A DNA stretch of 64,000 bases from positions 5,513-69,512 of the IMG/VR virus record IMGVR_UViG_3300028388_003891; one strand, written 5' to 3'. Each line of letters opens with the position of its first letter. Positions within the stretch are counted from its first letter, which is position 1. Source of the stretch: a virus (taxonomy: Duplodnaviria; Heunggongvirae; Uroviricota; Caudoviricetes). Shown here piece after piece: positions 5,484 to 60,482 of the stretch. Below the pieces are notes generated by a model. That model ran no database searches and was not told the origin of the DNA. It saw only the letters and a list, made by a program, of their open reading frames with translations. The position numbers were made by a program, and so were the translations under genes.

Positions 5484-5528
5484 ATACACCATAACTACAA
5501 AGCTAGTCGGCAACGGAGATAATAAAAA

Positions 5529-31089: not shown

Positions 31090-31457
31090 TTGCATTTGCT
31101 GGTGGGGCGTTCCATTAACGAAATTCGATGAAGCACAACGAACGGTGCTAAGGACGGGGGTTCGATTCCCCCCACCTCCACCAAAAAGCATACTCTTCCC
31201 GCGAAAGCGGTGCGATGGAAGTCGTCATAATCAACCAAGGGAGTATGCTTTTTGATGGGGGTGCACTGGCTTCGACTTGGACTTAATAGCTTGTGTGGAG
31301 AATAGGTGCGGAAGCTACCTTAAACGCAACAAAGTAAAAAAGTGACGCAGCTAATGATGCTGTGTATGATGTGGCTCTAGCAGCCTGATCATACTGGGGA
31401 TTGACTATCCTTATTATCCAATAAGTCCGGGCAGGTTAAACCTGCCCGTTTTAGTTT
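31090..31457 (+). ncRNA. ssrA: Two-piece (circularly permuted) tmRNA gene: acceptor piece first, coding piece second
   Basis: Acceptor piece ends ...GGACGGGGGUUCGAUUCCCCC-CACCUCC-A-CCA at 31174. The coding piece starts at 31257 with GGGGGUG, which pairs with CACCUCC. The coding-piece head GGGGGUGCACUGGCUUCGAC resembles the tmRNA 5' head GGGGCUGAUUCUGGAUUCGAC. An in-frame tag ORF GCA GCU AAU GAU GCU GUG UAU GAU GUG GCU CUA GCA GCC UGA (31348-31388) encodes AANDAVYDVALAA. The 82-nt intervening segment forms a 13-bp hairpin. Terminator at 31427-31456. Confidence 0.75.
31427..31456 (+). terminator. Rho-independent terminator closing the tmRNA coding piece
   Basis: CCGGGCAGG-TTAAA-CCTGCCCG hairpin followed by a TTTTAGTTTT run. 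Confidence 0.65.
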
Positions 31458-48956: not shown

Positions 48957-49388
48957 ATGCACGGTCTGCGTCATAGAGGCTACAAGGACAACAGCCCCCT
49001 TATGAAGGCCTACGACCAGGCGCAGAAACGTCGAATGAGTGGCCTAACTCGTGCGCATAAGCGTCTCAACAAAGAAAACGCTGAGCATCTTGATGAGCTG
49101 CGTAAATCCACGTATGCTAAGTACATTAGCAAAGCAGCTCGTTCTTCTTCGTACAACATGAAGGATGCAGAGACGTCAGACCAAGATGCCGATTACCACA
49201 ATGCGCGTGGCAACGAGTACCACCCAAACAATATGACGCCTGGCAACACATTGAAAAGTGAGCCTACTGCCAAAATGCACTACAAGATGGCTGATAAGCA
49301 TCGTGCCGCTGCAGGTAAGTCTCGCGCTAAGATGCTCAAGCGTCACAAGGGCGTTGACCGTGCTTTGCGACTGATGATGCAAAAGTAA
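48957..49388 (+). CDS. Highly basic protein 2
   Basis: 143 aa, Lys/Arg/His-rich. Confidence 0.4.
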   Translation: MHGLRHRGYKDNSPLMKAYDQAQKRRMSGLTRAHKRLNKENAEHLDELRKSTYAKYISKAARSSSYNMKDAETSDQDADYHNARGNEYHPNNMTPGNTLKSEPTAKMHYKMADKHRAAAGKSRAKMLKRHKGVDRALRLMMQK

Positions 49389-49957
49389 TGGAAAAGTACA
49401 AGCCGAGCAAGCACGAATGGGGCAAACCAGCTTCCACTCGTCTTGCAAAGAAAATCACACCTAATGAGAAGGTAAAAATGGAATCGTTCGAGTCATTCAT
49501 TTGTGAGATCAGCCAAAGTACCAAAGACCGTTACCTGCGTCGAGCGACTGGTGATGCGACTATGGCCAACTTTGCAAAACGTAGCACGTCTGGCAAAGAG
49601 CAAGAGTACTGGGCACGCAAAGAGAAGAATCGCAAGAAGGGTATCGCGCGAGCTCTTCCAAAAAGAAACTACACTGCTGAATCGAGCAAGCCCAAGCCGA
49701 TTGCGAGTGTGAGTTCTACTTCCGGGTCGAACACGCATTACATCCATCACTGGGACAATGGCGAGATCACATCCCACGGTGGCCGCAGCAAAACATCTCT
49801 GGCGCTCTCTAACCACGCCTTCAATCATCGAGGTGGAACCAAAGCAGCGGCGAAGGCAGTGACTGATGTTGTAAAGAGCGCAAAGAACAGCGATGATCTT
49901 GCCAATAAGTTGAACAGCAGTCGCCTTGGCTCAACTAACTGGAAACCAGTAAAATAA
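49388..49957 (+). CDS. Highly basic protein 3
   Basis: 189 aa, Lys/Arg/Ser-rich. Confidence 0.4.
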   Translation: MEKYKPSKHEWGKPASTRLAKKITPNEKVKMESFESFICEISQSTKDRYLRRATGDATMANFAKRSTSGKEQEYWARKEKNRKKGIARALPKRNYTAESSKPKPIASVSSTSGSNTHYIHHWDNGEITSHGGRSKTSLALSNHAFNHRGGTKAAAKAVTDVVKSAKNSDDLANKLNSSRLGSTNWKPVK

Positions 49958-50112
49958 TTTTCGATTGCCTGGTTGATAAACGACACTAACGGACTATATA
50001 CTATCACTATGTTGACGAATTTACATACAACAATACTCCCCCAAAGTAATCGCCCACTGATTGGCGGTTGGGGATCGTATTGTGTGGCGTTTGAGCGCAA
50101 AGATCCCAACAT

Positions 50113-50170
50113 AGTCCCCCTGATGAGTCTTATCGGAGACGAAACGCAAAGCTAAAGTAGCGTCGGGGAA
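50113..50170 (+). ncRNA. Hammerhead ribozyme 1 (type I, open stem I); predicted cleavage between 50164 and 50165
   Basis: GUCCCC-CUGAUGA-GUCU[UAUCGG]AGAC-GAAA-CGC[AAAGCUAAAGUA]GCG-UC^GGGGA. All core nucleotides are present (C3-A9, G12-A14, A15.1-U16.1, C17). Confidence 0.7.
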
Positions 50171-50275
50171 GAGAGAAGAAAATCTTCCCCCAGCTACCAC
50201 GAACTGTGAGCGTGGGAATCGCGGAGGGCAACAAGTCTCTTGTGACGGAAACCGATGCGACTTATCACAAATTAA

Positions 50276-50361
50276 CGCGGGATATACAAGCGGTCAACGT
50301 GATAGGGCTCATAACCCTATACCTTAGTGTTTCGTGGGTTCGAATCCCACTCCCGCAACCA
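50276..50361 (+). tRNA. tRNA-fMet-like (anticodon CAU), initiator features, unusual 14-nt variable region
   Basis: C1.A72 mismatch (CGCGGGA/UCCCGCA), anticodon stem with three G-C pairs (UAGGG-CUCAUAA-CCCUA), T arm GUGGG-UUCGAAU-CCCAC, A73-CCA. Confidence 0.55.
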
Positions 50362-50991
50362 AATTAACAGGCTGCCTTTCACATAGCCTGTTTTGACCGG
50401 CCCCTGTTTTTCCTCCTCCTTTTCGCAGGGGCCGGTCACCCTCTCCCCCGTTGCCCTCAATCTGACATTAAGAGATAATGTCTATGTTGAATTGAGGAGG
50501 CACCAATGAGCAAATACATTGTTTTCCAAATCGAAGTGACCCGCGCCATGGCCGACAAGATCGAGGTGTGATCGACATCAGAGAGTCGATAATGCCGACC
50601 CACGTCACACTGGCGATTGAAGACGGCCGCCTGATGGTCGTCGACGGCAGTGGGTATGACTTCATCATTGAGGAAGAAGATGAAACACAATCCAGTAGCT
50701 AAACACGCACACAAGTTCAACAAATGCGCCAAGCATGTTGACCGTAAGGCGCGTTCTAAGCGAGGATATCGCAAACACAGGAGAATTGATAATGGGTGTT
50801 GAGAACACAAATGTGGATACCAAAGAGCTCATGGTCGAGATTGATCTTGAACTTGGATCACTTGCGGCGCGGATCGCAACCGGCCTAACGTACAGCGAAA
50901 TCGTCGCGTTCGTTGAAATGATTGATAGCGAGGTATCCGACACCGAGTTTACGGACCAACTGATTAACGCCGTCCTACGCCTCAATGATTA

Positions 50992-51045
50992 ACTGCCCTG
51001 ATGAGTCTTACAGGAGACGAAACGCGCTGATAGCGCGTCGGCAGA
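50992..51045 (+). ncRNA. Hammerhead ribozyme 2 (type I); cleaves between 51039 and 51040, exactly at the tRNA-Tyr 5' end
   Basis: AACUGCC-CUGAUGA-GUCU[UACAGG]AGAC-GAAA-CGCGC[UGAUA]GCGCG-UC^GGCAGAG. Stem I is formed by the upstream CUGCC and the tRNA 5' acceptor strand GGCAG. Confidence 0.75.
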
Positions 51046-51121
51046 GTACACCCGTAACTGGTAGCGGCCCGCACTGTAACTGCGCATAACGTTGGGGGTT
51101 CGAATCCCTCCTCTGCCACCA
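51040..51121 (+). tRNA. tRNA (anticodon GUA, Tyr-type) with short variable region
   Basis: Acceptor GGCAGAG/CUCUGCC-A-CCA, anticodon arm (C)CGCA-CUGUAAC-UGCG(C), T arm GGGGG-UUCGAAU-CCCUC. D arm poorly paired. Confidence 0.55.
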
Positions 51122-51136
51122 AATTGAAAGGAGTTT

Positions 51137-51499
51137 GTGATGAATAAACGCTTCACGATTATCGCTGCGATAGTGATAGGCATCGGTAGTTTGTTTACTC
51201 TTTACGAAGGGGTCAAAGCTATCCGGCAGTATGCGTGGAACCATGAGGTTGTTGACGCTCGTCCCGTCGGTCCCGTTCGCACTGAGCAACGATTGATCGA
51301 ATGTGAGTATACAGGAATATGCTCTCGCTTTGATCCGCTGAACGGCGAGATGAGAACGGGGTTATCATCCTTTTGTCGCGGTCACCGTCCGGTCGTTGCT
51401 CGCATACAAGATGTGCAAGAGACGCTTCGTAACGGCGAGCAACGAATTCGAGAAGAGATAATGAGTCGCACAATCGTCGAGGGCGTAGCATGCAGATGA
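51137..51499 (+). CDS. Hypothetical membrane-anchored protein
   Basis: 120 aa with N-terminal TM helix. RBS AAAGGAG. Confidence 0.35.
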   Translation: MMNKRFTIIAAIVIGIGSLFTLYEGVKAIRQYAWNHEVVDARPVGPVRTEQRLIECEYTGICSRFDPLNGEMRTGLSSFCRGHRPVVARIQDVQETLRNGEQRIREEIMSRTIVEGVACR

Positions 51500-51533
51500 G
51501 CAAAGACGTAACCAAAGAGATTCTCAAAACGAA

Positions 51534-51607
51534 AGGGGATTAGCATAACGGTAGTGCGTCGGACTCTGACTCCGAATGTGGTGGTTCAATTCCACCATCC
51601 CCCGCCA
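51534..51607 (+). tRNA. tRNA-Gln (CUG)
   Basis: Anticodon arm UCGGA-CUCUGAC-UCCGA, T arm GGUGG-UUCAAUU-CCACC, acceptor AGGGGAU/AUCCCCC (A1.C72), G73-CCA. Confidence 0.6.
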
Positions 51608-51612
51608 ACAAA

Positions 51613-51688
51613 GCAGCTTTAGCAATGATGGTTCATGCGCTGGCCTGAAGTCCCAGATATCTCGGTTCGATCCCGAGGAGCTGCACCA
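51613..51688 (+). tRNA. tRNA-Phe (GAA)
   Basis: Acceptor GCAGCUU/GAGCUGC, anticodon loop CUGAAGU with C31.C39 mismatch, T arm CUCGG-UUCGAUC-CCGAG, A73-CCA. Confidence 0.55.
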
Positions 51689-51708
51689 AACAACAAAGGC
51701 GATGAGCA

Positions 51709-51969
51709 ATGTATGCAGTTCCCGAACGGTTTGATGTCCAGGCGCTTGGACGCACGATTACAGTGGTCTCCACGGCGAAGCCAGAAGATGGCGTGTATCA
51801 ATTGTGCGTAGAGATAGATGGCGAAATGGTACAGCTCGATACCTCGGTGCGAATAGAAGGACAGGAACTCTCATATATGATTCACGAGGAGGGGTATCAC
51901 GACATCTTGTTCCGTCTGGTTGCAGACGCAATTGAAGAACAGATGGGCCGTTCAGAAGCAAACAGCTAA
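51709..51969 (+). CDS. Hypothetical acidic protein
   Basis: 86 aa. Stop abuts tRNA 51971. Confidence 0.35.
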   Translation: MYAVPERFDVQALGRTITVVSTAKPEDGVYQLCVEIDGEMVQLDTSVRIEGQELSYMIHEEGYHDILFRLVADAIEEQMGRSEANS

Positions 51970-51970
51970 A

Positions 51971-52048
51971 GCGCCTGTAGCCCAATCAGGTAGAGGCAGC
52001 GGCTTTAAACCCCGTTCAGTGTGGGTTCGATCCCCTCCAGGCGCACCA
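51971..52048 (+). tRNA. tRNA with Leu anticodon UAA but class-I architecture (5-nt variable loop)
   Basis: Acceptor GCGCCUG/CAGGCGC, D stem GCC/GGC, anticodon arm GCGG(C)-UUUAAAC-(C)CCGU, T arm GUGGG-UUCGAUC-CCCUC, A73-CCA. Confidence 0.5.
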
Positions 52049-52082
52049 ACATCGGTTGACGACAACACGCTGGTAAGGGACA

Positions 52083-52301
52083 ATGAGTCTTTTGGAGGAT
52101 AAAACAATGGGTGAACGAACAATTCCTGCTCCAACAGAGCATCACTTCAGCTTTGCGACGGCAGTGGTCGATAATATGGTTCGCAACTGTGGAATCACAA
52201 GCTCCGGCGAAGACATCGATAAACTTAAAGACGCGATGGTTTCGTGCATTGCCCACCGTGACGCAGAGATCCTGTGGCTGCGCAAACTGGTGCATCCGTG
52301 A
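52083..52301 (+). CDS. Hypothetical protein
   Basis: 72 aa with RBS GGAGGA. Confidence 0.35.
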   Translation: MSLLEDKTMGERTIPAPTEHHFSFATAVVDNMVRNCGITSSGEDIDKLKDAMVSCIAHRDAEILWLRKLVHP

Positions 52302-52603
52302 TGTTGTACACTCCAGATAGATGGGTGTTGCTGGAAATCGAGCCGTACAAGTTGTACAAAGTGCTGGCGGGGTGGAATGGTGGTTATCTTTCGGCGGACG
52401 AATGGCGGATCAACTCCGGCATTAAAAGTCTGACCGATGAAGGCCAATATTTCACAGCAACAGGACACAGCGGCAGTGAATACCGTTTGTACAAGGATGC
52501 AGAGGGGTTCAATAAGATCAGCGCAGATGTGCTGTACAACCTCCAGAATGCTTATCCCCATATCGTCACTGTTTCTGCTGAACAATATTTTACGCGGGTG
52601 TAG
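52302..52603 (+). CDS. Hypothetical protein (start at the Met following the upstream stop)
   Basis: 100 aa. Ends with a TAG inside tRNA-Gly. Confidence 0.35.
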
Positions 52604-52669
52604 CTCAGTTGGTAGAGCATCTGGTTGCCAATCAGAAGGCCGTGGGATCGTGACCCATCACCCGCTCCA
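52594..52669 (+). tRNA. tRNA-Gly (GCC) with non-canonical T loop AUCGUGA
   Basis: Acceptor GCGGGUG/CACCCGC, D arm GCUC-AGUUGGUA-GAGC, anticodon arm UCUGG-UUGCCAA-UCAGA, U73-CCA. Overlaps the TAG stop of the upstream ORF. Confidence 0.65.
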
Positions 52670-52803
52670 AATTCTTGAATATGGAATGAGGAGAACTTAG
52701 TGAACAAACTTCGTAATCCGTACGATTCAAGGCAAGCGCCATCTGGGCGCGAATCTAAACAAAACGAACAACCCAGCCCATACGACGCGAGTGGTGTTCG
52801 TCG

Positions 52804-53100
52804 TTGGCTCGAACGGAAAACGAGGCGAAAACATCAAAAGTGAGATTGCTAATTTTTGCAGCGGTGCTGCTTTGTACAGCCTGCTCGACTACGCCGCCAG
52901 GAGTGACAAAACAGTGCGTACGTTACGAGTACAACAACGACTGGGAAATTGTTCAAATGGGCGGCTTCTACAGAGTAAAAGCGCCTCAGATGATATGCCG
53001 AAAATGGATGTATTATGAAAGTAGCAGTGACCGGTACGCGCCACGGAATGACTCGTCCACAAAGACAAATGGTGATGTCGACGATCCACCAGTAGACTGA
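52804..53100 (+). CDS. Small lipoprotein
   Basis: Signal peptide with lipobox 'LLCTAC'. Confidence 0.4.
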   Translation: MARTENEAKTSKVRLLIFAAVLLCTACSTTPPGVTKQCVRYEYNNDWEIVQMGGFYRVKAPQMICRKWMYYESSSDRYAPRNDSSTKTNGDVDDPPVD

Positions 53101-53101
53101 G

Positions 53102-53470
53102 TTGCATCAAGGATGCTGCAAAGGCGTTGATCGCGAATGCTACCTAATGGCAGCAGACAATCCAGACTACGACATAACGATTTACTCGTACCCACCAATT
53201 AATGATCACTATGCGATCAAGTGCCTCGGTCATGTCAATTACAAGCCACAGCCGTTCCTTGTACGCGATCGTGCTCTGGTAGATGCGGCGGATATTCTGC
53301 TATCGATGCCACTTACTGATTACGAGACATTTCGCAGTGGTACATGGTACACTACACGCTATGCTCTGCAGCAGGACAAGCCTGTCGTACTGATTCAACC
53401 TAACGGCACTAGTGTGCCTGCTGATGAAATTGAGAGATACTTACTACCTGGAAAATGGGGTGAAAGGTAA
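53102..53470 (+). CDS. Hypothetical protein (nucleoside 2-deoxyribosyltransferase-like fold?)
   Basis: 'ALVDAADILLSMP...TWYTTRYALQQDKPVVLI'. Weak call. Confidence 0.25.
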   Translation: MHQGCCKGVDRECYLMAADNPDYDITIYSYPPINDHYAIKCLGHVNYKPQPFLVRDRALVDAADILLSMPLTDYETFRSGTWYTTRYALQQDKPVVLIQPNGTSVPADEIERYLLPGKWGER

Positions 53471-54435
53471 TGGAATTCATCAAATACAGCTCGATTGAGA
53501 ATCACTACCGTGAGAAGGTTGTCGACTGGTATCGTGAAAATGGATTAGAAAACGTCGGATGGATCTTGACGGAGAAGATCCATGGCGCTAACTTTTCTTT
53601 CTGGTGCAACAGCAGCGAAGTCAAGGTCGCATCTCGTAACCAATGGGTCGACAGCACATTCTATAGCTGTCAGGACATCATCGACGCGTACACGCCCGTT
53701 GTGCTAGAGCTCGCTACTTTCTTCCCCAACAGCACTGTAGCTGTGTATGGGGAGCTGTACGGACCCGGTATTCAGAAGGGGGTCAATTACGGCGACAAAA
53801 AAGATTTCGTTGCCTTCGACATTCGAGTTGACGGATACTTCCTAGATCGTAATAAAGTACATGTGTACATCGCTGGTGCAAACCAGCTGACATTACAAAA
53901 GCACGGTCAGAGGTCCACCTTGATGGACGTTGTCCCTATTGTTGGCTCGACAGTGTCACTAACACAAGTGCTTGAGTTTGATAACGAGTTTGTATCTGTG
54001 CTTGGCCGTCTCAATGGTGTCGACGACGATGCCAACCTTGCTGAGGGATTCATTGCAACGCCAGTCGGCAAAGCGTACCAACGCATTGGCAGCGACCGTG
54101 TGATCCTCAAATCGAAAGGTGAAAAGTGGACAGAGAAAAGCAAGAAGGTAAAGACGCCTCGTGCTCCTGTTACTGAGCACCCACTGACATCAACGGTTGA
54201 GCAGTATGTCAACACCAACCGTGTCGATGCTGTCACAAGTAAGATGGGCCCGTTGACTCCAAAGGACTTTGGTCGGATCATTAGGGCTGTTTGTGATGAT
54301 GTCATTGATGACATGGTGAAGGACGGTGATGTTCGTAGCTGCTGGCGCGATGACGAAGAGACGAAAGACCTTGGCAAGGTTGTTAACAAAGTGGTAGTGC
54401 CTTTCCTCAAGAAAGAGCTGCTACCGACGTTGTAA
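53470..54435 (+). CDS. RNA ligase, Rnl2 family
   Basis: Nucleotidyltransferase motif I 'TEKIHGANF' (compare T4 Rnl2 'EKIHGTNF'). 321 aa. Embedded in the tRNA/ribozyme array. Confidence 0.65.
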   Translation: MEFIKYSSIENHYREKVVDWYRENGLENVGWILTEKIHGANFSFWCNSSEVKVASRNQWVDSTFYSCQDIIDAYTPVVLELATFFPNSTVAVYGELYGPGIQKGVNYGDKKDFVAFDIRVDGYFLDRNKVHVYIAGANQLTLQKHGQRSTLMDVVPIVGSTVSLTQVLEFDNEFVSVLGRLNGVDDDANLAEGFIATPVGKAYQRIGSDRVILKSKGEKWTEKSKKVKTPRAPVTEHPLTSTVEQYVNTNRVDAVTSKMGPLTPKDFGRIIRAVCDDVIDDMVKDGDVRSCWRDDEETKDLGKVVNKVVVPFLKKELLPTL

Positions 54436-54452
54436 CACGCTTGGCAGTGTAG

Positions 54453-54497
54453 GCGGGTGAGGAACCACGAACTGGATCCAGTGACCCCGCCGTTTTA
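54453..54497 (+). terminator. Terminator-like hairpin after the RNA ligase gene, leading into a TATAAAT box before tRNA-Glu
   Basis: GGCGGG...CCCGCC stem with an internal CTGGATCCAG palindrome, then GTTTTATAAAT. Confidence 0.4.
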
Positions 54498-54505
54498 TAA
54501 ATTAC

Positions 54506-54582
54506 GTCCCTATAGGTTAACAGGTTAGACCTTCAGGCTTTCAACCTGGCAGAGTGGGGTTCGAGTCCCCCTAGGGACACCA
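54506..54582 (+). tRNA. tRNA-Glu (UUC)
   Basis: Acceptor GUCCCUA/UAGGGAC, anticodon arm UCAGG-CUUUCAA-CCUGG, T loop UUCGAGU, A73-CCA. Confidence 0.7.
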
Positions 54583-54586
54583 AATT

Positions 54587-54686
54587 ACGTGCTTGGTGTA
54601 ATGCGTAGCATACCAAGACCGAACTGCGCGAACGCAGATGTAGGCAATCAAAATGGGAGGTCCAGGTTCGAATCCTGGGGCACGTA
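54587..54686 (+). other. tRNA-like element (about 100 nt) with canonical T arm and 3' acceptor strand but no recognisable anticodon arm; no CCA
   Basis: 5' ACGUGCU pairs with 3' GGCACGU-A. T arm CCAGG-UUCGAAU-CCUGG. Interior consists of two hairpins (CUUGGUGU...ACCAAG and CUGCG-CGAA-CGCAG). Confidence 0.3.
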
Positions 54687-54695
54687 ACTAATAAA

Positions 54696-54772
54696 CTGGG
54701 TATAGGGCAGTCTGGTAGCCTACCTCCCTTGGAAGGAGGATGTCGATGGTTCAAATCCATCTACCCAGACCA
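54696..54772 (+). tRNA. tRNA-Pro (UGG)
   Basis: C1-G72 acceptor CUGGGUA/UACCCAG, anticodon arm CCUCC-CUUGGAA-GGAGG, T arm GAUGG-UUCAAAU-CCAUC, A73-CCA. Confidence 0.75.
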
Positions 54773-54924
54773 ATTTTGGCTTGTACGCAAGCGGTGACGG
54801 AAGCAGCTTGCAGAATGTGTTGAACGTCAGATGTGGGTAATACTAGAATCGCTATCTAGAACTAAGACATAGCCACGATGCCGGAGATCCGTGGGGTGCG
54901 TCGTGGCGGCCAAAATTCAACAGA

Positions 54925-55000
54925 GGTGCCGTAGCTTAACGGGGAAAGGCTCAGACTGTCAATCTGAGAGATACGGGTTCGAGACCCGTCGGTACCGCCA
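54925..55000 (+). tRNA. tRNA-Asp (GUC)
   Basis: Anticodon arm UCAGA-CUGUCAA-UCUGA, T arm ACGGG-UUCGAGA-CCCGU, acceptor GGUGCCG/CGGUACC, G73-CCA. Confidence 0.7.
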
Positions 55001-55018
55001 AACTAAAAGGAGAAGAAA

Positions 55019-55267
55019 ATGGACGACAACCAGTTGTATTCCATCAGTTGTATTAGCTTCTTTTTTACGATATGCGTCATAGCGTTTACAATCGGATCTT
55101 GTAATACCAGAGAAGCAGAGCAGGAAACGGAGAGGTATCGAATCGAAATGGATCGATACGATCCTGGTTCGATTGACTATTTGGAAGCGCAGTGTATCGA
55201 GAAGTCGGGACTCCATGCTTCGATACTTCGGTTCTGTGAAGAAGCGCTGGAGAAAGCAAACGGATAA
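55019..55267 (+). CDS. Small membrane protein inside the tRNA array
   Basis: 82 aa with RBS AAGGAG and one TM helix. Confidence 0.4.
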   Translation: MDDNQLYSISCISFFFTICVIAFTIGSCNTREAEQETERYRIEMDRYDPGSIDYLEAQCIEKSGLHASILRFCEEALEKANG

Positions 55268-55268
55268 T

Positions 55269-55345
55269 GCGCCCCTACGCAAATTGGCAAAGCGGCTGGC
55301 TTTAGAAGCCGGTGTTTCTCGGTTCGAGTCCGAGGGGGCGTACCA
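55269..55345 (+). tRNA. tRNA with Leu anticodon UAG, class-I architecture
   Basis: Acceptor GCGCCCC/GGGGCGU (G1.U72), anticodon arm CUGGC-UUUAGAA-GCCGG, 5-nt variable loop, T arm CUCGG-UUCGAGU-CCGAG, A73-CCA. Confidence 0.5.
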
Positions 55346-55351
55346 AACAAT

Positions 55352-55428
55352 GGGTCGTTAGCTTAATTGAGTAAAGCAGCAGGCTTTTAACCTGCCAGAT
55401 CTGAGTTCGAGTCTCAGGCGGCCTACCA
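55352..55428 (+). tRNA. tRNA-Lys (UUU)
   Basis: D arm GCUU-AAUUGAGUA-AAGC, anticodon arm GCAGG-CUUUUAA-CCUGC, T arm CUGAG-UUCGAGU-CUCAG, A73-CCA. Confidence 0.7.
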
Positions 55429-55568
55429 AATCAATATGGCGCTAACTCGTGCCCCGACCACCAGATCGGACTACAATGCTGGTAGGCACCTAGGCCTATA
55501 CTCGCCCCAGTCGAGTGAACGTGTGACAGTTACGACGACACGACCATAATGGAACTGGGACAAATTCT

Positions 55569-55644
55569 TGGCATGTAGCATTGAAGGTAATGCGCCGCAC
55601 TGTTAATGCGGAGGAATCCGGTTCGATCCCGGACGTGCCAGCCA
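55569..55644 (+). tRNA. tRNA-Asn (GUU)
   Basis: Acceptor UGGCAUG/CGUGCCA, D arm GCAU-UGAAGGUA-AUGC, anticodon arm CCGCA-CUGUUAA-UGCGG, T arm UCCGG-UUCGAUC-CCGGA, G73-CCA. Confidence 0.7.
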
Positions 55645-55910
55645 ATTATGGTCCGTTGCATTGGGATGCATCCCTTTGCTGATAAACGAAGGGGAGTAAG
55701 TCGGGCACGCGACCGACCGGAAGCCGGATATAAAGCTGTCATCTGACATGGTGGCAGTCGGACCGCCATACAATGGGGCGAAGTGACGTAGACGCGCGTT
55801 AAGAACAGCCGATCTGAGCCCCACCATAAATAGGTCAACACACTACAGGTTGACAACATGATAGCTTTCAAGGACCATATTCAAGAATCAAGAACAGCTA
55901 AAGTTTTAAC

Positions 55911-55984
55911 GCCCGGTTAGCTCAATGGGAGAGCTACTGCCTTACAAGCAGAGGACGGTGGTTCGATTCCATCACTGGGTACCA
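55911..55984 (+). tRNA. tRNA-Val (UAC)
   Basis: D arm GCUC-AAUGGGA-GAGC, anticodon arm (A)CUGC-CUUACAA-GCAG(A), T arm GGUGG-UUCGAUU-CCAUC, A73-CCA. Confidence 0.65.
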
Positions 55985-56016
55985 AGAATAGTGGAGGGCT
56001 AATGCCCATCTGCGAG

Positions 56017-56084
56017 CTCCACAACGACTGGCAAATGGCGCTGGGGTGTCCCGGAACGGAGGTTCGATTCCTCCCAGTTCGTAC
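56017..56084 (+). other. Truncated tRNA-like element (acceptor-like stem, one hairpin, canonical T arm), no CCA
   Basis: T arm GGAGG-UUCGAUU-CCUCC followed by CAGUUCG-U. Imperfect 5' partner CGACUGG. Preceded by a GUGGAG...CUCCAC nested hairpin at 55991-56023. Confidence 0.25.
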
Positions 56085-56245
56085 TACAACACCGGTTAGT
56101 GATACGAGTAACGATTAAGTTACAGTTGTGGAGCGGTACTATTAGGAATGGCTACAGCATCTAATTACTACGCAGCCAAAGAAAGCCATTCCGTAACAAT
56201 TAAGAGTGTTTGCAGCAACTAATCTTCCATGCTAAGGACGAGGCC

Positions 56246-56302
56246 GCAGGTTCGAATCCTGCTCCCCGCCATCGACGGTGGGGGTAGCTCAGCGGTAGAG
56301 CG
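56246..56302 (+). other. tRNA half-fragments: T arm plus 3' acceptor (CCUGC-UCCCCGC-C) followed 7 nt later by a tRNA 5' half (GGUGGGGG-UA-GCUC-AGCGGUA-GAGC-GC)
   Basis: The 3' strand UCCCCGC(C) upstream pairs perfectly with GGUGGGG downstream, a permuted or fragmented arrangement. The 5' half resembles tRNA-Ala. Confidence 0.3.
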
Positions 56303-56328
56303 CGTAGAAATACACTCTGTTTATTTTT

Positions 56329-56400
56329 GGGGGTGCCGTATGGGACGGACTTAGCCCTTGCAAGGCTGATGGTCGGGATCGTTACCCGATACCTCCACCA
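56329..56400 (+). tRNA. tRNA-Ala-like (UGC) with G3.U70 but a degenerate D arm; possibly a disrupted gene
   Basis: Acceptor GGGGGUG/UACCUCC (G3.U70), anticodon arm UAGCC-CUUGCAA-GGCUG, T arm UCGGG-AUCGUUA-CCCGA, A73-CCA. Preceded by a U-run and the tRNA 5' half fragment. Confidence 0.4.
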
Positions 56401-56406
56401 AACATT

Positions 56407-56484
56407 CACCGTGTAGCTCAGTCTGGTCAGAGCGTTCGCTTTGGAAGCGTAGGGCCACTGGTTCGAATCCAGTCATGGTGACCA
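56407..56484 (+). tRNA. tRNA-Pro (UGG), second copy with different sequence
   Basis: C1-G72 acceptor CACCGUG/CAUGGUG, D arm GCUC-AGUCUGGUCA-GAGC, anticodon arm UUCGC-UUUGGAA-GCGUA (one mismatch), T arm ACUGG-UUCGAAU-CCAGU, A73-CCA. Confidence 0.55.
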
Positions 56485-56664
56485 AATTGGTTCGTGGACT
56501 ACCGTAAGACGCCTACGTTTAGGTGCCGCGACCCCACGAACAAGTCGTGGGACGACAAGCGCGAATGTGTTATATACTTCACACGGACGGTGGCGTCTGT
56601 TGTTGTGAAAGTCGTTAACTAGCGTTGAGCTGATCACTCTAGTCCCGCGGCGGCGCTATTAAAT

Positions 56665-56740
56665 GGGTCGTTAGCTTAACTGGCAAAGCTCCGGTCTCCA
56701 AAACCGGCAGATCGCGGTTCGAAGCCGTGGCGGCCCGCCA
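56665..56740 (+). tRNA. tRNA-Trp (CCA)
   Basis: Anticodon arm CCGGU-CUCCAAA-ACCGG, D arm GCUU-AACUGGCA-AAGC, T arm CGCGG-UUCGAAG-CCGUG, G73-CCA. Confidence 0.7.
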
Positions 56741-56817
56741 AACAGCTCATAAGGTGAGCAGTTGCGACTGGTACATATTCGCCGCCACGCCATATTTTCT
56801 CTTGCCGGAAGATAAAC

Positions 56818-56893
56818 GCTCCTAAAGCATTGCTGGCCGATGCACGGGTCTTGTAAGCCTGAGAACTCAGTTCGATTCTGAGTAGGAGCACCA
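56818..56893 (+). tRNA. tRNA-Thr (UGU)
   Basis: Acceptor GCUCCUA/UAGGAGC, D arm GCAU-UGCUGGCCG-AUGC, anticodon arm CGGGU-CUUGUAA-GCCUG, T arm CUCAG-UUCGAUU-CUGAG, A73-CCA. Confidence 0.65.
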
Positions 56894-56897
56894 ACAT

Positions 56898-56973
56898 GCC
56901 CTCAAAGCATTGCCGATTGATGCGCGAGTTTCGTAAACTTGATAACTGCGTTTGATTCGCAGTGAGGGCTCCA
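56898..56973 (+). tRNA. tRNA-Thr (CGU)
   Basis: Acceptor GCCCUCA/UGAGGGC, anticodon arm CGAGU-UUCGUAA-ACUUG, T arm CUGCG-UUUGAUU-CGCAG, U73-CCA. Confidence 0.65.
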
Positions 56974-57022
56974 ATTGAGCAACTGCAGAATGTCTGCGGT
57001 GATATACAGGTAGGACGCATAA

Positions 57023-57099
57023 GCCGCAGTGACCCAATTGGCAGAGGTGCCAGTTTCAAAAGCTGGATGTTGTCGGTTCGACTCCGACCTGCGGTACCA
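57023..57099 (+). tRNA. tRNA with Leu anticodon CAA, class-I architecture
   Basis: Acceptor GCCGCAG/CUGCGGU, anticodon arm CCAGU-UUCAAAA-GCUGG, 5-nt variable loop, T arm GUCGG-UUCGACU-CCGAC, A73-CCA. Confidence 0.5.
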
Positions 57100-57184
57100 A
57101 ACTACGACGTCGAGCTCAAGATAACACCGGGGACCGGCGTGTGGGAAGGCTATTTGGAATACGGACTGCTTATAAAATGGTTAT

Positions 57185-57259
57185 AGGGATGTAGCGCAAT
57201 TGGTAGAGCAGCGGAGTTTGATTCCGCAGATTCCGGTTCGAATCCGGACATCCCTTCCA
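57185..57259 (+). tRNA. tRNA-Gln (UUG)
   Basis: Acceptor AGGGAUG/CAUCCCU, anticodon arm GCGGA-GUUUGAU-UCCGC, T arm UCCGG-UUCGAAU-CCGGA, U73-CCA. TATAAAAT box about 15 nt upstream. Confidence 0.65.
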
Positions 57260-57347
57260 AGGACAGTAAAATGAACGTACTACGAGAGTACGAACACCAC
57301 AACAAGCTGGTACTCAGTATTTTAATGGATGCTTTAGCTGATCCACC

Positions 57348-57422
57348 GGGCCGGTAGCTTAATGGTAGAGCAGTGCCCTCATAAGGCAACGGTTGTGGGT
57401 TCGATTCCCTCCCGGCCCACCA
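57348..57422 (+). tRNA. tRNA-Met (CAU), elongator type, or Ile2 if lysidinylated
   Basis: Acceptor GGGCCGG/CCGGCCC, anticodon arm (G)UGCC-CUCAUAA-GGCA(A), T arm GUGGG-UUCGAUU-CCCUC, A73-CCA. Confidence 0.6.
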
Positions 57423-57517
57423 GTTACGTAACGCAGGCCGCCCCTGCGACACTTGGGTAGCGCCCAAAACCCCTCTCGAGGACTAGAGAGGCAAAACCAA
57501 AGGTCAACCAATTCAAT

Positions 57518-57593
57518 GCCCTCGTAGCTTAACGGATAGAGCGACTCGCTACGAACGAGTTAGGTGGGAGTTCAATTCTCTCCGAGGGTGCCA
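57518..57593 (+). tRNA. tRNA-Arg (ACG)
   Basis: Acceptor GCCCUCG/CGAGGGU, anticodon arm ACUCG-CUACGAA-CGAGU, T arm GGGAG-UUCAAUU-CUCUC, G73-CCA. Confidence 0.7.
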
Positions 57594-57739
57594 AACGTAG
57601 TTCGTGTGAGCAACCGGTTGTCTGCAGACACCAACGGGAAACGAACTGGCCGGGACAGTGAGATGCTCACACATCACTGATCCACCAATTATGGGGTGAG
57701 GGCGCGCGACTAAGGAATACCTGATCCCCACCATACAAC

Positions 57740-57815
57740 GACGCGATGGCTCGAGTGGTTAGGCCGCCGCCTGCAAAGCGGAAGAATGTCGGTTCGATTC
57801 CGACTCGCGTCTCCA
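57740..57815 (+). tRNA. tRNA-Cys (GCA)
   Basis: Acceptor GACGCGA/UCGCGUC, anticodon arm GCCGC-CUGCAAA-GCGGA (27.43 mismatch), T arm GUCGG-UUCGAUU-CCGAC, U73-CCA. Confidence 0.6.
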
Positions 57816-57821
57816 AACAAT

Positions 57822-57915
57822 GGAAGGTAATGCAGTGCCGATGGTGGCGCGACTGGCCTTGAAAACCAGGTCCCGGCTAAAACCGGGTGGGGTTCGACTC
57901 CTCTGCCTTCCGCCA
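57822..57915 (+). tRNA. tRNA-Ser (UGA), class II with long variable arm
   Basis: Acceptor GGAAGGU/GCCUUCC, anticodon arm CUGG(C)-CUUGAAA-(A)CCAG, variable arm CCCGG-CUAAAA-CCGGG, T loop UUCGACU, G73-CCA. Confidence 0.7.
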
Positions 57916-57932
57916 ACATAGGAGATGGCAAC

Positions 57933-58190
57933 ATGGAAAAGTTTGCAGTGCTTGCCATTACGGCAGGCTTAATCGGTTTGGGGCTAATCCTCATCGCCCT
58001 TGCAATGTCGAAAATTTCAATCCCAGAATGGTTCTTCCGCACACAGGATGGTGTGCGTATTGGAGTGCGTACAGACGTGTTGGGCAACACGAAAGTGCGA
58101 GTTGACTTTGCTGACAAAACAACACGCGCGCTGATCTACAAACGAGCCAAAGCTGTTAACGACCGTGTGACTATGAGTGCACTGCGTTGA
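57933..58190 (+). CDS. Small membrane protein
   Basis: 85 aa with RBS AGGAG. One TM helix (AVLAITAGLIGLGLILIALA). Confidence 0.4.
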   Translation: MEKFAVLAITAGLIGLGLILIALAMSKISIPEWFFRTQDGVRIGVRTDVLGNTKVRVDFADKTTRALIYKRAKAVNDRVTMSALR

Positions 58191-58340
58191 CCTGACAGCC
58201 GGGATTGGAGACAATAAGTACTGATTTGGGCCATTTCGAAAATTGCTGAATTGCTATGTGTGGCCCCGTTTTGCGGCTATATAGAAAGAAGACCGAGGAG
58301 CATAAGCGTAAAATCGCTGAATCTCTACGGAATAGAAAAC

Positions 58341-58417
58341 GCAGGACTGGTGTTTAACGGCTAGCATCTCTGGCTTCCAACCAGAAGGTAGGAGTTCGAG
58401 TCTCCTGTTCTGCTCCA
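58341..58417 (+). tRNA. tRNA-Gly (UCC)
   Basis: Acceptor GCAGGAC/GUUCUGC, anticodon arm UCUGG-CUUCCAA-CCAGA, T arm AGGAG-UUCGAGU-CUCCU, U73-CCA. Confidence 0.65.
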
Positions 58418-58437
58418 AATAATGTCGAGGACAGATC

Positions 58438-58776
58438 GTGGATAATCTGGTTGGAAACCGTTACAATCTGTATGGTGTGTGGGACGACCACATCAAACTG
58501 AACGATACCGTGTACCGTATCGACGTAGACCCGTTTGATGGCTATCGATCCTACCTCAATGGGGTTACGGCGGTACTGCAGACGCCAGAGATGGTGTTTT
58601 CGACGTTGCCCATAGCTGAAATCGTGGTGCACGAAGATCGCACGGAGTGCAAAAACGGATACATCTTGAAAGACGACCTAGGTCACGTGTGGCTTGAGCT
58701 CGGTACCGATCACCACGACAGTTGGTATCCGTATGTGTACATGCGGTATAATCCCAAAGAACCAGATAACGTATGA
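58438..58776 (+). CDS. Hypothetical protein
   Basis: 112 aa. Confidence 0.35.
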   Translation: MDNLVGNRYNLYGVWDDHIKLNDTVYRIDVDPFDGYRSYLNGVTAVLQTPEMVFSTLPIAEIVVHEDRTECKNGYILKDDLGHVWLELGTDHHDSWYPYVYMRYNPKEPDNV

Positions 58777-58777
58777 T

Positions 58778-58855
58778 GGTGGTCGTAGCTCAATTGGTTA
58801 GAGCGTCGGTTTGTGACACCGAAGGCCGAGGGTTCGATCCCCTCCGATCACCCCA
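58778..58855 (+). tRNA. tRNA-His (GUG) with encoded G-1 pairing with C73
   Basis: G-1 at 58778, acceptor GUGGUCG/CGAUCAC, D arm GCUC-AAUUGGUUA-GAGC, anticodon arm UCGGU-UUGUGAC-ACCGA, T arm GAGGG-UUCGAUC-CCCUC, C73-CCA. Confidence 0.75.
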
Positions 58856-58931
58856 AATTAACGACGACTGCAGCCCGATATACAGAGAAGAATAAATACT
58901 GTCCCACAATTCAATTTATTAACACCGATGA

Positions 58932-59008
58932 GCCCTCGTAGCTTAACTGGATAGAGCAACGGAATTCTACTCCGTTTGATGTGGGTTCGAATCCTACCGA
59001 GGGTGCCA
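58932..59008 (+). tRNA. tRNA-Arg (UCU)
   Basis: Acceptor GCCCUCG/CGAGGGU, anticodon arm ACGGA-AUUCUAC-UCCGU, T arm GUGGG-UUCGAAU-CCUAC, G73-CCA. Confidence 0.7.
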
Positions 59009-59010
59009 AT

Positions 59011-59298
59011 TTGAAATACGATCTGCCAGCATTATATGATGAGCTGAGCCCAAAACAAAGACGAGACGTCCGCCTACAATATGTTGAGCAACAACAAGGC
59101 AAGTGCTATTGGTGCAACCATGACCTCAACCAGGATCCTCCAATTTCGATACTTAATGAATGGATCAACTGGGACCTATTTCCCGACGGGTTCCGAAAAC
59201 ATCCGATCCATCTGCAGCACGACCACGATACGGGACTGACGGAGGGCGCCGTGCATATGAGATGTAATGCCTATATGTGGCAGTATCGTGGACGGTAA
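59011..59298 (+). CDS. Small HNH-like endonuclease (CxxC...HxxH motifs); TTG start just after the tRNA
   Basis: 'CYWCNHDL...HLQHDHDTGLTEGAVHMRCNAY'. The ORF-track ATG start at 58981 lies inside the tRNA, so a TTG with a GAGGGTG RBS was used. Confidence 0.35.
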   Translation: MKYDLPALYDELSPKQRRDVRLQYVEQQQGKCYWCNHDLNQDPPISILNEWINWDLFPDGFRKHPIHLQHDHDTGLTEGAVHMRCNAYMWQYRGR

Positions 59299-59348
59299 TA
59301 TATCTGTATAGTAGAATTTGGGCTAATATACCGATATAGTAGAATTAT

Positions 59349-59423
59349 GGCTTCATAGCTCAATGGCAAGAGCACTCGGCCGATAACCGGGAGATCTAAG
59401 TTCGATTCTTAGTGAAGCTACCA
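59349..59423 (+). tRNA. tRNA-Ile (GAU)
   Basis: Acceptor GGCUUCA/UGAAGCU, D arm GCUC-AAUGGCAA-GAGC, anticodon arm CUCGG-CCGAUAA-CCGGG, T arm CUAAG-UUCGAUU-CUUAG, A73-CCA. Confidence 0.7.
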
Positions 59424-59428
59424 AACAC

Positions 59429-59503
59429 GCCCCTGTAGTACAACCGGTAGTACACCACCTTGGTAAGGTGGAGAACGTGGGTCGGGACCACGCTGGGGCA
59501 CCA
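59429..59503 (+). tRNA. tRNA-Thr (GGU) with non-canonical T loop GUCGGGA
   Basis: D arm GUAC-AACCGGUA-GUAC, anticodon arm CCACC-UUGGUAA-GGUGG, T arm CGUGG-GUCGGGA-CCACG, acceptor GCCCCUG/CUGGGGC (one mismatch), A73-CCA. Confidence 0.6.
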
Positions 59504-59510
59504 AACTAAA

Positions 59511-59588
59511 GCCTGAGTACCCCAATTGGCAGAGGGGCGAGATCGAGAATCTCGTTAGGTGTGGGTTCGAGTCCCACCTCAGGTACCA
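59511..59588 (+). tRNA. tRNA with Leu anticodon GAG, class-I architecture
   Basis: Acceptor GCCUGAG/CUCAGGU, D arm CCCC-AAUUGGCAGA-GGGG, anticodon arm CGAGA-UCGAGAA-UCUCG (C33), T arm GUGGG-UUCGAGU-CCCAC, A73-CCA. Confidence 0.5.
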
Positions 59589-59869
59589 ACGCGTGCAACC
59601 TGTGTTACGTTGCAAACGTGCACACGGTCATCCACCTTGATGCGCAATTGCGCTCCGACGTTGATCTGCTGGTCATTCGTATCGAGCTCGACGTCACTAT
59701 TTGGACGCAGCTTTAACGTGCAATCAGATTCGACGACCCAGTCGCCTCGTCGGTCAGTCTGAACGAGTACGACTGACGGGGCAAACCACACTGAGCGAAT
59801 CTCCGTTGGGTGTGGTGCGGCAAAGGCCGCTGTTGACAAAAGTGCTAATGCTAGTAGAAGGTATTTCAC
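59579..59869 (-). CDS. Small secreted protein (signal peptide MKYLLLALALLSTAAFA)
   Basis: 96 aa on the minus strand. The hairpin at 59590-59625 may terminate it. Confidence 0.4.
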   Translation of the reverse strand: MKYLLLALALLSTAAFAAPHPTEIRSVWFAPSVVLVQTDRRGDWVVESDCTLKLRPNSDVELDTNDQQINVGAQLRIKVDDRVHVCNVTQVARVGT

Positions 59870-59930
59870 AATAGGCTCCTATGAGTGTATATAAGGTATA
59901 TATGCTCTATACATCTTCTCGGAATACATT

Positions 59931-60080
59931 ATGAGTAAAAAGGCGAAAGATTCACAGCTCCTCATCAAAGTTAACAAAGAGGACAAGAAAGCCTTCATTG
60001 AAATATGTGAATCGCAAGACACGACTGCAAGTCGTGAGATCCGCAGATTCATTTCACGCACTATCAAAAAACATGGGTGA
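59931..60080 (+). CDS. Small ribbon-helix-helix-like protein (49 aa, not in ORF track)
   Basis: 'KVNKEDKKAFIEICESQDTTASREIRRFI' beta-strand/helix pattern typical of Arc/CopG/ParD-like RHH proteins. 7 nt upstream of the next ORF. Confidence 0.3.
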   Translation: MSKKAKDSQLLIKVNKEDKKAFIEICESQDTTASREIRRFISRTIKKHG

Positions 60081-60086
60081 TGTATT

Positions 60087-60383
60087 ATGACGAACATTAA
60101 GCGGGACGACGTGCAACAGTCCTTTACGAACCGCCGTAACGAAATCGCGAACAGGCTTGAGGCATCTCTCTTTGGGGCACGTAACGAAGACATTACGATG
60201 AGCCCTCGCGCCCTTGAAGCGGTTGAGGTGTGCGCGGAGGGGATCGATACGATGGGCAAGTACATTGACTATTTGGAAGCTGCCCTACATAAGGCGCGCA
60301 CACGTGTAAAGGACCTCGAGCGCATCACAGCATCACCACAAGACGTCACTGTTGTCAAAGATGGCGCGCAGGTGCGACTATAG
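60087..60383 (+). CDS. Hypothetical protein downstream of the RHH gene
   Basis: 98 aa. Ends with a TAG abutting tRNA-Ser. Confidence 0.3.
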   Translation: MTNIKRDDVQQSFTNRRNEIANRLEASLFGARNEDITMSPRALEAVEVCAEGIDTMGKYIDYLEAALHKARTRVKDLERITASPQDVTVVKDGAQVRL

Positions 60384-60390
60384 CTATATT

Positions 60391-60482
60391 GGAAGGTTGC
60401 CAGAGAGGTCGATTGGGGCTCCCTGCTAAGGAGTTGACCCTCTTATGAGGGTCCGAGAGTTCGAATCTCTCACCTTCCGCCA
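60391..60482 (+). tRNA. tRNA-Ser (GCU), class II
   Basis: Acceptor GGAAGGU/ACCUUCC, anticodon arm GCUCC-CUGCUAA-GGAGU, variable arm GACCCUC-UUAU-GAGGGUC, T arm GAGAG-UUCGAAU-CUCUC, G73-CCA. Confidence 0.7.

Follow-up and report, generated by a model that had tools for sequence, protein, structure and literature searches.

A type I hammerhead ribozyme motif upstream of an initiator-like tRNA at the head of a phage tRNA island

The hammerhead ribozyme motif described here, HHR1 (hammerhead ribozyme 1), lies in a stretch of 64,000 nucleotides (nt) corresponding to positions 5,513 to 69,512 of the IMG/VR virus record IMGVR_UViG_3300028388_003891; this whole stretch is referred to as the window, and its coordinates count from its first letter. 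HHR1 occupies positions 50114-50170 of the plus strand upstream of an initiator-like tRNA gene and is a genuine type I hammerhead motif as well as a good member of the phage hammerhead family. We read it as a functional, leader-cleaving hammerhead stemming from a lineage largely fused to genes of tyrosine tRNA (tRNA-Tyr), which would cut the transcript after C50164 and leave the maturation of the initiator-like tRNA at 50276 to ribonuclease P (RNase P). We assign this reading a probability of roughly 0.55. A second hammerhead of the window, HHR2, belongs to the same lineage.

HHR1 is a complete type I hammerhead motif

Stem I of HHR1 is open and consists of five base pairs (bp) between 50115-50119 (UCCCC) and 50165-50169 (GGGGA). 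It is followed by the core strand CUGAUGA (50120-50126) and by stem II, likewise of 5 bp, which joins 50127-50131 (GUCUU) with 50136-50140 (GAGAC), begins with the pair G50127-C50140 and is closed by the loop AUCG. The second core strand GAA (50141-50143) leads into stem III, whose 4 bp between 50144-50147 (ACGC) and 50160-50163 (GCGU) enclose a loop of 12 nt. All core positions (C3, U4, G5, A6, N7, G8 and A9 as well as G12, A13 and A14) are canonical, the A15.1-U16.1 pair is provided by A50144 and U50163, and position 17, which must not be G, is C50164. The latter belongs to a GUC triplet which places the predicted cleavage between C50164 and G50165. With stem I open, stems II and III closed by loops and the G10.1-C11.1 pair present, the layout is that of type I. 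The original prediction, made from the sequence alone, had described a type I hammerhead at 50113-50170 with a 12-nt loop on stem III and cleavage after C50164. The canonical core, the three stems in register, the loop and the position of the triplet agree with this description; a small correction is that the model match begins at 50114.

Phage type I hammerheads, of which a pattern scan reveals hundreds of similar motifs in IMG/VR contigs, were gathered by their core pattern from IMG/VR and metagenome contigs. Stems I and III are in register in 112 of 145 matches to the core pattern, compared to about 0.5% if HHR1's own flanks are shuffled, and in the alignment of the family 93.5% of the cells pair, with a covariation score of 0.66 versus 0.15 in shuffles. 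From 79 aligned phage hammerheads, the two of the window being left out, we built the covariance model R1 and used it to search both strands of the entire window with filters switched off. HHR2 scored 56.5 bits and HHR1 50.0 bits (expectation value, E, about 9e-15), followed by a match of 11.6 bits which is not a hammerhead; the window therefore contains exactly two hammerheads. The strict pattern CTGATGAGN{6,30}CGAAAC occurs twice in the 64 kb, namely in HHR1 and HHR2, where 0.01 occurrences are expected, in line with the earlier statement that both have the same core. If the core is kept fixed and the flanks are shuffled, stems I and III with no fewer than 5 and 4 bp, respectively, arise together and in register in 0.015% of 20,000 trials. 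Pattern matches in contigs L129/L133, L130, L138 and L139 were discarded as chance occurrences devoid of stems I and III and located in coding or terminator sequence.

In the Rfam family Hammerhead_1 (RF00163), HHR1 is matched end to end with 26.8 bits (local E 5.6e-4) and thereby misses the gathering score of 34 bits, as would be expected if it merely resembled the hammerhead consensus by chance. HHR2, however, scores 18.3 bits, the two hammerheads of contig L143 score 28.1 and 32.3 bits, and no phage type I hammerhead in the 10 other loci scanned reaches the cut-off. Because other phage hammerheads also fall short of it, we regard this cut-off as conservative for the phage clade and not as a structural criterion. 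The covariance-model search formerly suggested as a check hence succeeds with the phage-specific model and stays below the Rfam threshold. Jointly, the pattern, R1 and shuffle results give about 1e-6 expected chance matches per window, and HHR1 additionally carries the loop II signature specific to the subgroup described below. On these grounds a chance match is effectively refuted, the probability left to it being negligible.

A tRNA-linked subgroup of phage hammerheads

HHR1, HHR2 and 11 hammerheads from other phage contigs form a subgroup of 13 members which is characterised by the stem II signature GUC(U/C)U-A..R-G(A/G)GAC. Within this signature the fourth pair of stem II covaries (U-A or C-G), the closing U·G pair is invariant and the next base, A, is nearly so. 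The conserved U·G pair together with the A of loop II hints, as far as can be judged from sequence, at a candidate tertiary contact between stem I and stem II of the kind associated with fast cleavage at low Mg2+. In HHR1 the signature reads GUCUU-AUCG-GAGAC. The loop, UAUCGG, recurs unchanged in the tRNA-Tyr-fused hammerheads of contigs L159 and L162, which have one compensated pair exchanged in stem II. HHR1 and HHR2 had been reported to share an identical stem II, which is true of the helix, yet two bases of the loop are not the same (UAUCGG in HHR1, UACAGG in HHR2).

Nine of the 11 members from other contigs (L001 with two copies, L004, L132, L135, L137, L143, L159 and L162) are fused to tRNA-Tyr(GUA), i.e. 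the base following the cleavage site is position +1 of the tRNA; coordinates of such fusions are 8480-8605 in L143, 8399-8525 in L159, 6483-6756 in L001 and 1101-1220 in L132. HHR2 (50992-51045, plus strand), whose minimum-energy fold is the hammerhead and whose predicted cleavage falls after C51039, is the tenth tRNA-Tyr fusion, bringing the fused total to 10 of HHR1's 12 co-members. Its non-canonical tRNA-Tyr(GUA) at 51040-51121 of the plus strand, the first base of which (G51040) directly follows the cut, was missed by ARAGORN and obtained 40.4 bits with the Rfam tRNA model. Low Rfam scores (40.4, 41.3 and 35.5 bits) are found for the fused tRNA-Tyr genes, some of which are missed by ARAGORN or Rfam. 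Where hammerhead and tRNA are fused, one and the same strand serves as 3' strand of stem I and as 5' strand of the acceptor stem, and stem I and acceptor strands covary. The 5-bp stem I is kept in all 13 members, with at least eight different sequences. The stem I strand of the fused members must also pair with the 3' strand of the tRNA. We conclude that the subgroup is real and under selection. The HHR2-type fusions, which recur in at least eight further contigs of uncultured large phages, look like a means of forming the tRNA 5' end without RNase P.

In three members, HHR1 and those of contigs L006 and L134, the cleavage site does not abut a tRNA. The hammerhead of L006 is preceded by a TTGACA-17-TATAAT promoter and followed, after 15 nt, by tRNA-His, while that of L134 is followed by a non-tRNA RNA which is common to L134 and contig L088. 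In these two unrelated contigs (L134 1752-1871 and L088 4107-4200) the same RNA (GCAUGAAGUUAG.GGGUA.AC.CCAU...) stands directly after the hammerhead; it has no Rfam match and is not a tRNA. Outside the subgroup, contig L080 has an initiator tRNA at the head of a tRNA array, and 356 nt upstream of this tRNA lies a hammerhead. The sampled phage type I hammerheads as a whole mostly reside just upstream of protein genes. HHR1 and HHR2 had been interpreted as a duplicated processing module rather than a chance match. Their common stem II signature confirms that they are related and not fortuitous, but they are not equivalent copies, as HHR1 is unfused.

We would like to add that a small, very basic open reading frame (ORF; MKHNPVAKHAHKFNKC...GYRKH; 50683-50805 in the window, 8377-8481 in L143) is kept upstream of the hammerhead-tRNA-Tyr module in several phages. 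In L143, L159 and L162 the fusion directly follows this ORF, which ends in ..GYRKHK, and in L143 and L162 the stop codon of the ORF borders on stem I or overlaps with it. In the window, one further ORF precedes HHR2.

The region between HHR1 and the initiator-like tRNA

As originally predicted, the 3' product of HHR1 would open with a stable hairpin (50165-50190, plus strand), which comprises GGGGAAGA, a 10-nt loop and UCUUCCCC (50183-50190), has 8 bp and a folding energy of -12.4 kcal/mol, and is present in every minimum-energy fold including it. The 3' strand of stem I, which in the fused members is the acceptor strand of the tRNA, is in HHR1 the 5' strand of this hairpin. Hairpin and stem I are therefore mutually exclusive.

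The initiator-like tRNA(CAU) of 86 nt, previously located at 50276 some 110 nt downstream, was found at 50276-50361 of the plus strand by ARAGORN and, with 45.3 bits, by the Rfam tRNA model. We call it initiator-like because its C1·A72 mismatch and its GGG/CCC anticodon stem are hallmarks of bacterial initiators; in addition, it has a variable region of 14 nt, an odd D arm and an encoded CCA. A clear homologue is present in the jumbo-phage contig L006 (302 kb; 3974-4058), where it is preceded by another tRNA and has no hammerhead in front; the two tRNAs share the mismatched 1:72 pair, the GGG/CCC anticodon stem, the odd D arm and a long variable region (13-14 nt).

The spacer from cleavage site to tRNA (50165-50275, plus strand) measures exactly 111 nt. 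Its folding energy of -32.9 kcal/mol is slightly better than that of shuffled sequences, the z-score of -2.1 being modest. The spacer has no match in Rfam, the tRNA model included, at E values up to 10, no homologue of it was found anywhere, and it bears no significant likeness to the fused tRNA-Tyr genes or any tRNA of the window, the best uncorrected p values of the alignments being 0.058 with 7 targets and 0.037 with 30 targets. A decayed tRNA-Tyr or other tRNA was accordingly rejected as an identification of the spacer. An RNA of the GGUGUAR family was rejected likewise, as the ACCU...GGUGUAR signature is absent and there is no common consensus fold. The spacer may thus be a leader which RNase P takes off and which is discarded, a small RNA in its own right, or what is left of a lost tRNA. 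The GGUGUAR family itself is a structured RNA of about 115-135 nt with the signature ACCU...GGUGUAR, which follows a type I hammerhead in the tRNA islands of contigs L016, L068, L087, L103 and L143 (8656-8776 in the latter) and ends with a U-run or the next tRNA. It corresponds to no Rfam family at gathering score and produces a weak match resembling the COG2908 RNA.

Upstream of HHR1, a sigma-70-like promoter candidate (TTGATA, 18-nt spacer, TATACT; 10 of 12 consensus matches) is situated at 49973-50002 of the plus strand. It would start a transcript about 105 nt upstream of HHR1, and these 105 nt form strong hairpins according to fold prediction. Directly after the tRNA, sequence and predicted fold reveal a hairpin of 8 bp that leads into a short U tract (50366-50394, plus strand), which the terminator scan did not call, its loop being 11 nt long and its tract containing only 4 U, and which is a possible end of the transcription unit. 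From the compact order, on one strand, of promoter-like site, structured leader of about 105 nt, HHR1, spacer, tRNA and terminator-like hairpin we infer a single transcription unit.

Proposed role of HHR1 and alternative explanations

In the reading we favour, stems I to III would form during transcription and the RNA would cut itself after C50164. The upstream piece would retain the ribozyme and end in a 2',3'-cyclic phosphate; it may represent a leader originating from the promoter near 49973-50002 or else read-through out of the ORF at 49388-49957. The downstream piece would begin with a 5'-hydroxyl at G50165, and the freed GGGGA strand would be captured by the more stable 8-bp hairpin at 50165-50190, which would render the cut irreversible and cap the new 5' end. 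Since the cleavage lies 111 nt upstream, HHR1 cannot make the 5' end of the initiator-like tRNA. RNase P would still be required at 50275/50276, and the role of HHR1 would be the uncoupling and trimming of the precursor, not the maturation of the tRNA. Judged by its sequence, HHR1 is probably active in cis; its catalysis, the order of folding, the use of the promoter and the participation of RNase P are what we infer from the motif and its surroundings. HHR1 most likely derives from the tRNA-Tyr-fused lineage that includes HHR2, and precedents for an unfused arrangement are provided by L006, with its hammerhead 15 nt before tRNA-His, and by L080 with 356 nt to an initiator tRNA. That the spacer carries no tRNA or family signal, yet the hammerhead core is unchanged, argues for selection on the ribozyme itself.

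Several observations, in addition to the missed Rfam gathering score, weigh against this reading. Phage type I hammerheads are generally not enriched near tRNAs, with 5 located within 400 nt upstream of one versus 3.55 expected, and promoter-like sites in the region (3 versus 2.2 in shuffles) are no better than background. The hammerhead fold of HHR1 has an energy of -14.6 kcal/mol and is thus 3.0 kcal/mol above the minimum of -17.6 kcal/mol, which ranks HHR1 93rd, i.e. second-worst, of 94 phage hammerheads, whereas in 81% of these, HHR2 included, the hammerhead is the minimum-energy fold. HHR1 is an outlier because its core strand CUGAUGA has another possible partner in UUAUCGG, made up of loop II and the closing pair, which gives an alternative hairpin of -4.5 kcal/mol compared to -4.4 kcal/mol for stem II. 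If the downstream hairpin is taken into account, the cleavage-competent fold of HHR1 is 6.5 kcal/mol above the minimum, the corresponding value for HHR2 with its whole tRNA being 1.6 kcal/mol. The 3' strand of this hairpin is transcribed only about 18 nt after stem I, and in terms of modelled energies the hairpin could inhibit the cleavage by HHR1 instead of locking it.

Moreover, searches by nucleotide and protein sequence, by pattern and by synteny revealed no orthologue of the HHR1 locus, so that the conservation and covariation reported above are those of the family and the subgroup. Megablast and blastn searches of 49000-52000 against cultured phages returned only the tRNA-Phe of Sinorhizobium phage Phosso, and a 35-nt HHR1 probe against cultured phages returned nothing real. 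The upstream ORF at 49388-49957 has no relative in IMG/VR, and its sole weak protein homologue stands in a non-syntenic context. Pattern scans of IMG/VR, JGI metagenomes and GTDB genomes detected other hammerheads and never the HHR1 locus, and a pattern for the initiator-like tRNA detected L006 only, without a hammerhead in front. Among the contigs of 8 Rnl2 homologues, hammerheads were found in L143/L144 only, where they are counterparts of HHR2, not of HHR1. tRNA matches in phage PA5oct and in Erwinia jumbo phages were dismissed as ordinary tRNA similarity with no hammerhead nearby.

Nearest-neighbour energies leave out the tertiary pairs of the hammerhead core and hence do not show that HHR1 is inactive. 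Its outlier energies do imply that HHR1 cleaves either within the short time before 50183-50190 is transcribed, or slowly, or in a gated manner. The alternative hairpin between loop II and core could be a by-product or a built-in off state, and the strand swap between stem I and the downstream hairpin together with this alternative pairing could make HHR1 a kinetically gated ribozyme that acts during transcription only. Loop II plus closing pair is likewise complementary to CUGAUGA in the hammerheads of L004, L001 (at 6633) and L135; across these members and HHR1 it reads UUAUCGG, UUAUCAG or UUAUUAG, and the alternative hairpin has about the stability of stem II.

Other roles for the cut have to be considered alongside the trimming of a tRNA leader. 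A distinct small RNA of about 111 nt (50165-50275) might owe its 5' end to HHR1 and its 3' end to a cut made at the tRNA by RNase P; the tRNA would then be a 3' processing signal and the spacer the product that matters. By analogy, this idea draws on the recurrent module of a hammerhead, a structured RNA of about 115-135 nt and then a tRNA or U-run, as found in L143, a relative of the window's phage, in L103 and L087 (each before a tRNA), in L068, and in L016 (with a U-run and then an ORF), and on the other common non-tRNA RNA that follows the hammerheads of L134 and L088. The spacer also folds somewhat better than its shuffles, but this effect is modest, neither signature nor consensus fold of the RNAs in those modules is present in the spacer, and neither an Rfam match nor a homologue was found for it, so that we regard a small RNA as rather unlikely. 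Still further from the tRNA, the target could be the RNA upstream, that is, the 3' end of the message of ORF 49388-49957 or the leader RNA, whose stability would be changed by a structured end bearing a cyclic phosphate. Most of the sampled phage type I hammerheads lie between protein genes and not beside tRNAs, such a role has been discussed for polycistronic phage transcripts (PMC3088659, PMC6765202), and the 105 nt upstream of HHR1 form strong hairpins. HHR1, however, belongs to the tRNA-linked subgroup and not to the common intergenic types, a promoter-like site separates it from the ORF, and the ATG which follows most sampled intergenic hammerheads within about 100 nt is missing after HHR1. 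An upstream target is accordingly very improbable.

It is also conceivable that HHR1 is a decaying paralogue, a former hammerhead-tRNA-Tyr copy which has lost its tRNA, is weak or inactive and plays no part for the initiator-like tRNA. The fusion of 10 of the 12 other subgroup members to tRNA-Tyr and the position of HHR1 as thermodynamic outlier of the family would fit this view. Furthermore, its stems III and I resemble those of the fused hammerhead of L143 plus an insertion of 8 nt in the stem III loop (ACGCAAAG(CUAAAGUA)GCGUC/GGGGAA in HHR1 versus ACGCAAAGGCGUC/GGGGGA in L143). Within the spacer, UCCCCCAGCUACCACGAA agrees at 14 of 18 aligned bases with L004's tRNA-Tyr at its 3' end, GCG-UGGGAAU-CGC is reminiscent of a T arm, and a likeness to the CCAAAUUAA trailers of the island tRNAs is seen in the trailing CACAAAUUAA. 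None of the tRNA-like similarities is significant, however, given the uncorrected p values stated above, and no tRNA model matches the spacer at E up to 10. Moreover, a neutral relic would be expected to lose core bases as fast as it lost its tRNA, but HHR1 has kept its core and its three stems in full, and the 8-bp hairpin is perfect. We therefore consider decay unlikely and retain the leader-cleaving ribozyme as the best explanation.

Relation to known ribozymes

With Hammerhead_1 of Rfam (RF00163) HHR1 shares the 13 conserved core positions, the three-way junction and the GUC triplet. It differs in that its stem II and loop are phage-specific and its stem I of 5 bp has no obvious internal loop for a contact between stems I and II. 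Knowledge of hammerheads in intergenic regions of phages and prophages dates from 2011 (Perreault et al. 2011, PMC3088659), and that study makes no link to tRNAs. Like the hammerheads reported there, HHR1 is a small hammerhead in a phage transcript with a presumed role in the processing of multi-gene RNA; unlike them, it is placed in the leader of a tRNA, and the other members of its subgroup are mostly fused to tRNA 5' ends.

The theta ribozymes are minimal ribozymes resembling that of hepatitis delta virus (HDV) which occur beside phage tRNAs (Kienbeck et al. 2024, PMC10879173). Their association with tRNAs is called previously unreported in that paper, which attributes the maturation of the 5' side to RNase P and makes no mention of hammerheads. 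HHR1 resembles them as a small self-cleaving ribozyme in cis with phage tRNA genes for which processing of the tRNA transcript is proposed. Theta ribozymes, however, have an HDV-like fold, lie downstream, free the tRNA 3' end and are found in gut phages, often with suppressor tRNAs, whereas HHR1 is a hammerhead upstream of its tRNA at a distance of 111 nt. No HDV-like Rfam match was obtained in 49900-51300 at E up to 10.

In engineered hammerhead-tRNA transcripts, as used for the in vitro synthesis of tRNAs, a variable 5' leader is cut off by a cis-acting hammerhead, so that a defined 5'-hydroxyl results, and in the RiboJ insulator a hairpin directly follows the hammerhead cleavage site. HHR1 would act in a similar manner to these 5' cassettes and to RiboJ; those are man-made, while HHR1 is natural and known from its sequence. 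Fused members such as HHR2 appear to be functional analogues of RNase P at position +1 of the tRNA. HHR1, in contrast, does not cut at the tRNA, and the cut at 50275/50276 still has to come from RNase P or a different nuclease. We found no report of a natural linkage of hammerheads with tRNAs in the full-text literature searched, from which most subscription journals are absent. HHR1 thus apparently is a hammerhead in an undescribed, tRNA-linked setting.

RNase P is regarded as the enzyme that makes tRNA 5' ends in nearly all cases, and the only reported link between phage ribozymes and tRNAs is the HDV-like theta ribozyme acting at tRNA 3' ends. We tentatively suggest, with the odds somewhat against it, that large phages carry a dedicated hammerhead lineage which takes over or pre-empts the formation of RNA 5' ends in their tRNA islands, fused copies creating position +1 of tRNA-Tyr without RNase P and detached copies serving as insulators. 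Detached copies may then launch a hairpin-capped precursor with a 5'-hydroxyl, or a small RNA, from whichever transcript contains them. If hammerheads indeed act at tRNA 5' regions, phage cis-ribozymes would operate on the 5' side as well, alongside RNase P, and the resulting tRNAs or precursors with a 5'-hydroxyl would differ from RNase P products for nucleases, kinases and ligases. HHR1 alone is one more phage hammerhead; it becomes more telling in combination with HHR2 and the fused tRNA-Tyr modules of other phages. At a distance of 880 nt, HHR1 and HHR2 constitute a natural matched pair with regard to the effects of the distance to the tRNA and of a strand-swapping hairpin.

Genomic setting

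The window is part of the genome of an uncultured T4-like phage. Its family B DNA polymerase (36379-38913) has a best match of 46% identity among cultured phages, and further encoded proteins include a UvsX-like recombinase, a DnaB-like helicase, a DNA ligase and an Rnl2-type RNA ligase. About 30 tRNA genes are present, all on the plus strand, 29 of which lie within 50276-60482, so that HHR1 is positioned at the head of this tRNA island. The gene of the Rnl2-type RNA ligase is found within the island (53470-54435). RtcB, or Rnl1 together with a polynucleotide kinase-phosphatase, is encoded nearby in related contigs (L140, 1-710; L150, 5361-9520); no kinase was seen among the window ORFs scanned. 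Substrates of the ligase, RtcB and kinase-phosphatase enzymes are 5'-hydroxyl and 2',3'-cyclic phosphate ends, such as hammerheads make.

About 20 kb upstream of the island, the window holds a lone tRNA with a CUA anticodon (29459-29535), which is of the amber-suppressor type and labelled 'Pyl' by ARAGORN, as well as a permuted transfer-messenger RNA (31123-31388; 95.2 bits in Rfam). Finally, just past the unit of the initiator-like tRNA, a GC-rich hairpin of 12 bp is located at 50395-50437. Its loop UUUUUCCUCCUCCUUUUCG resembles an anti-Shine-Dalgarno sequence, and the hairpin is overlapped by a weak Rfam match (19.3 bits) to the alphaproteobacterial small RNA ar14.

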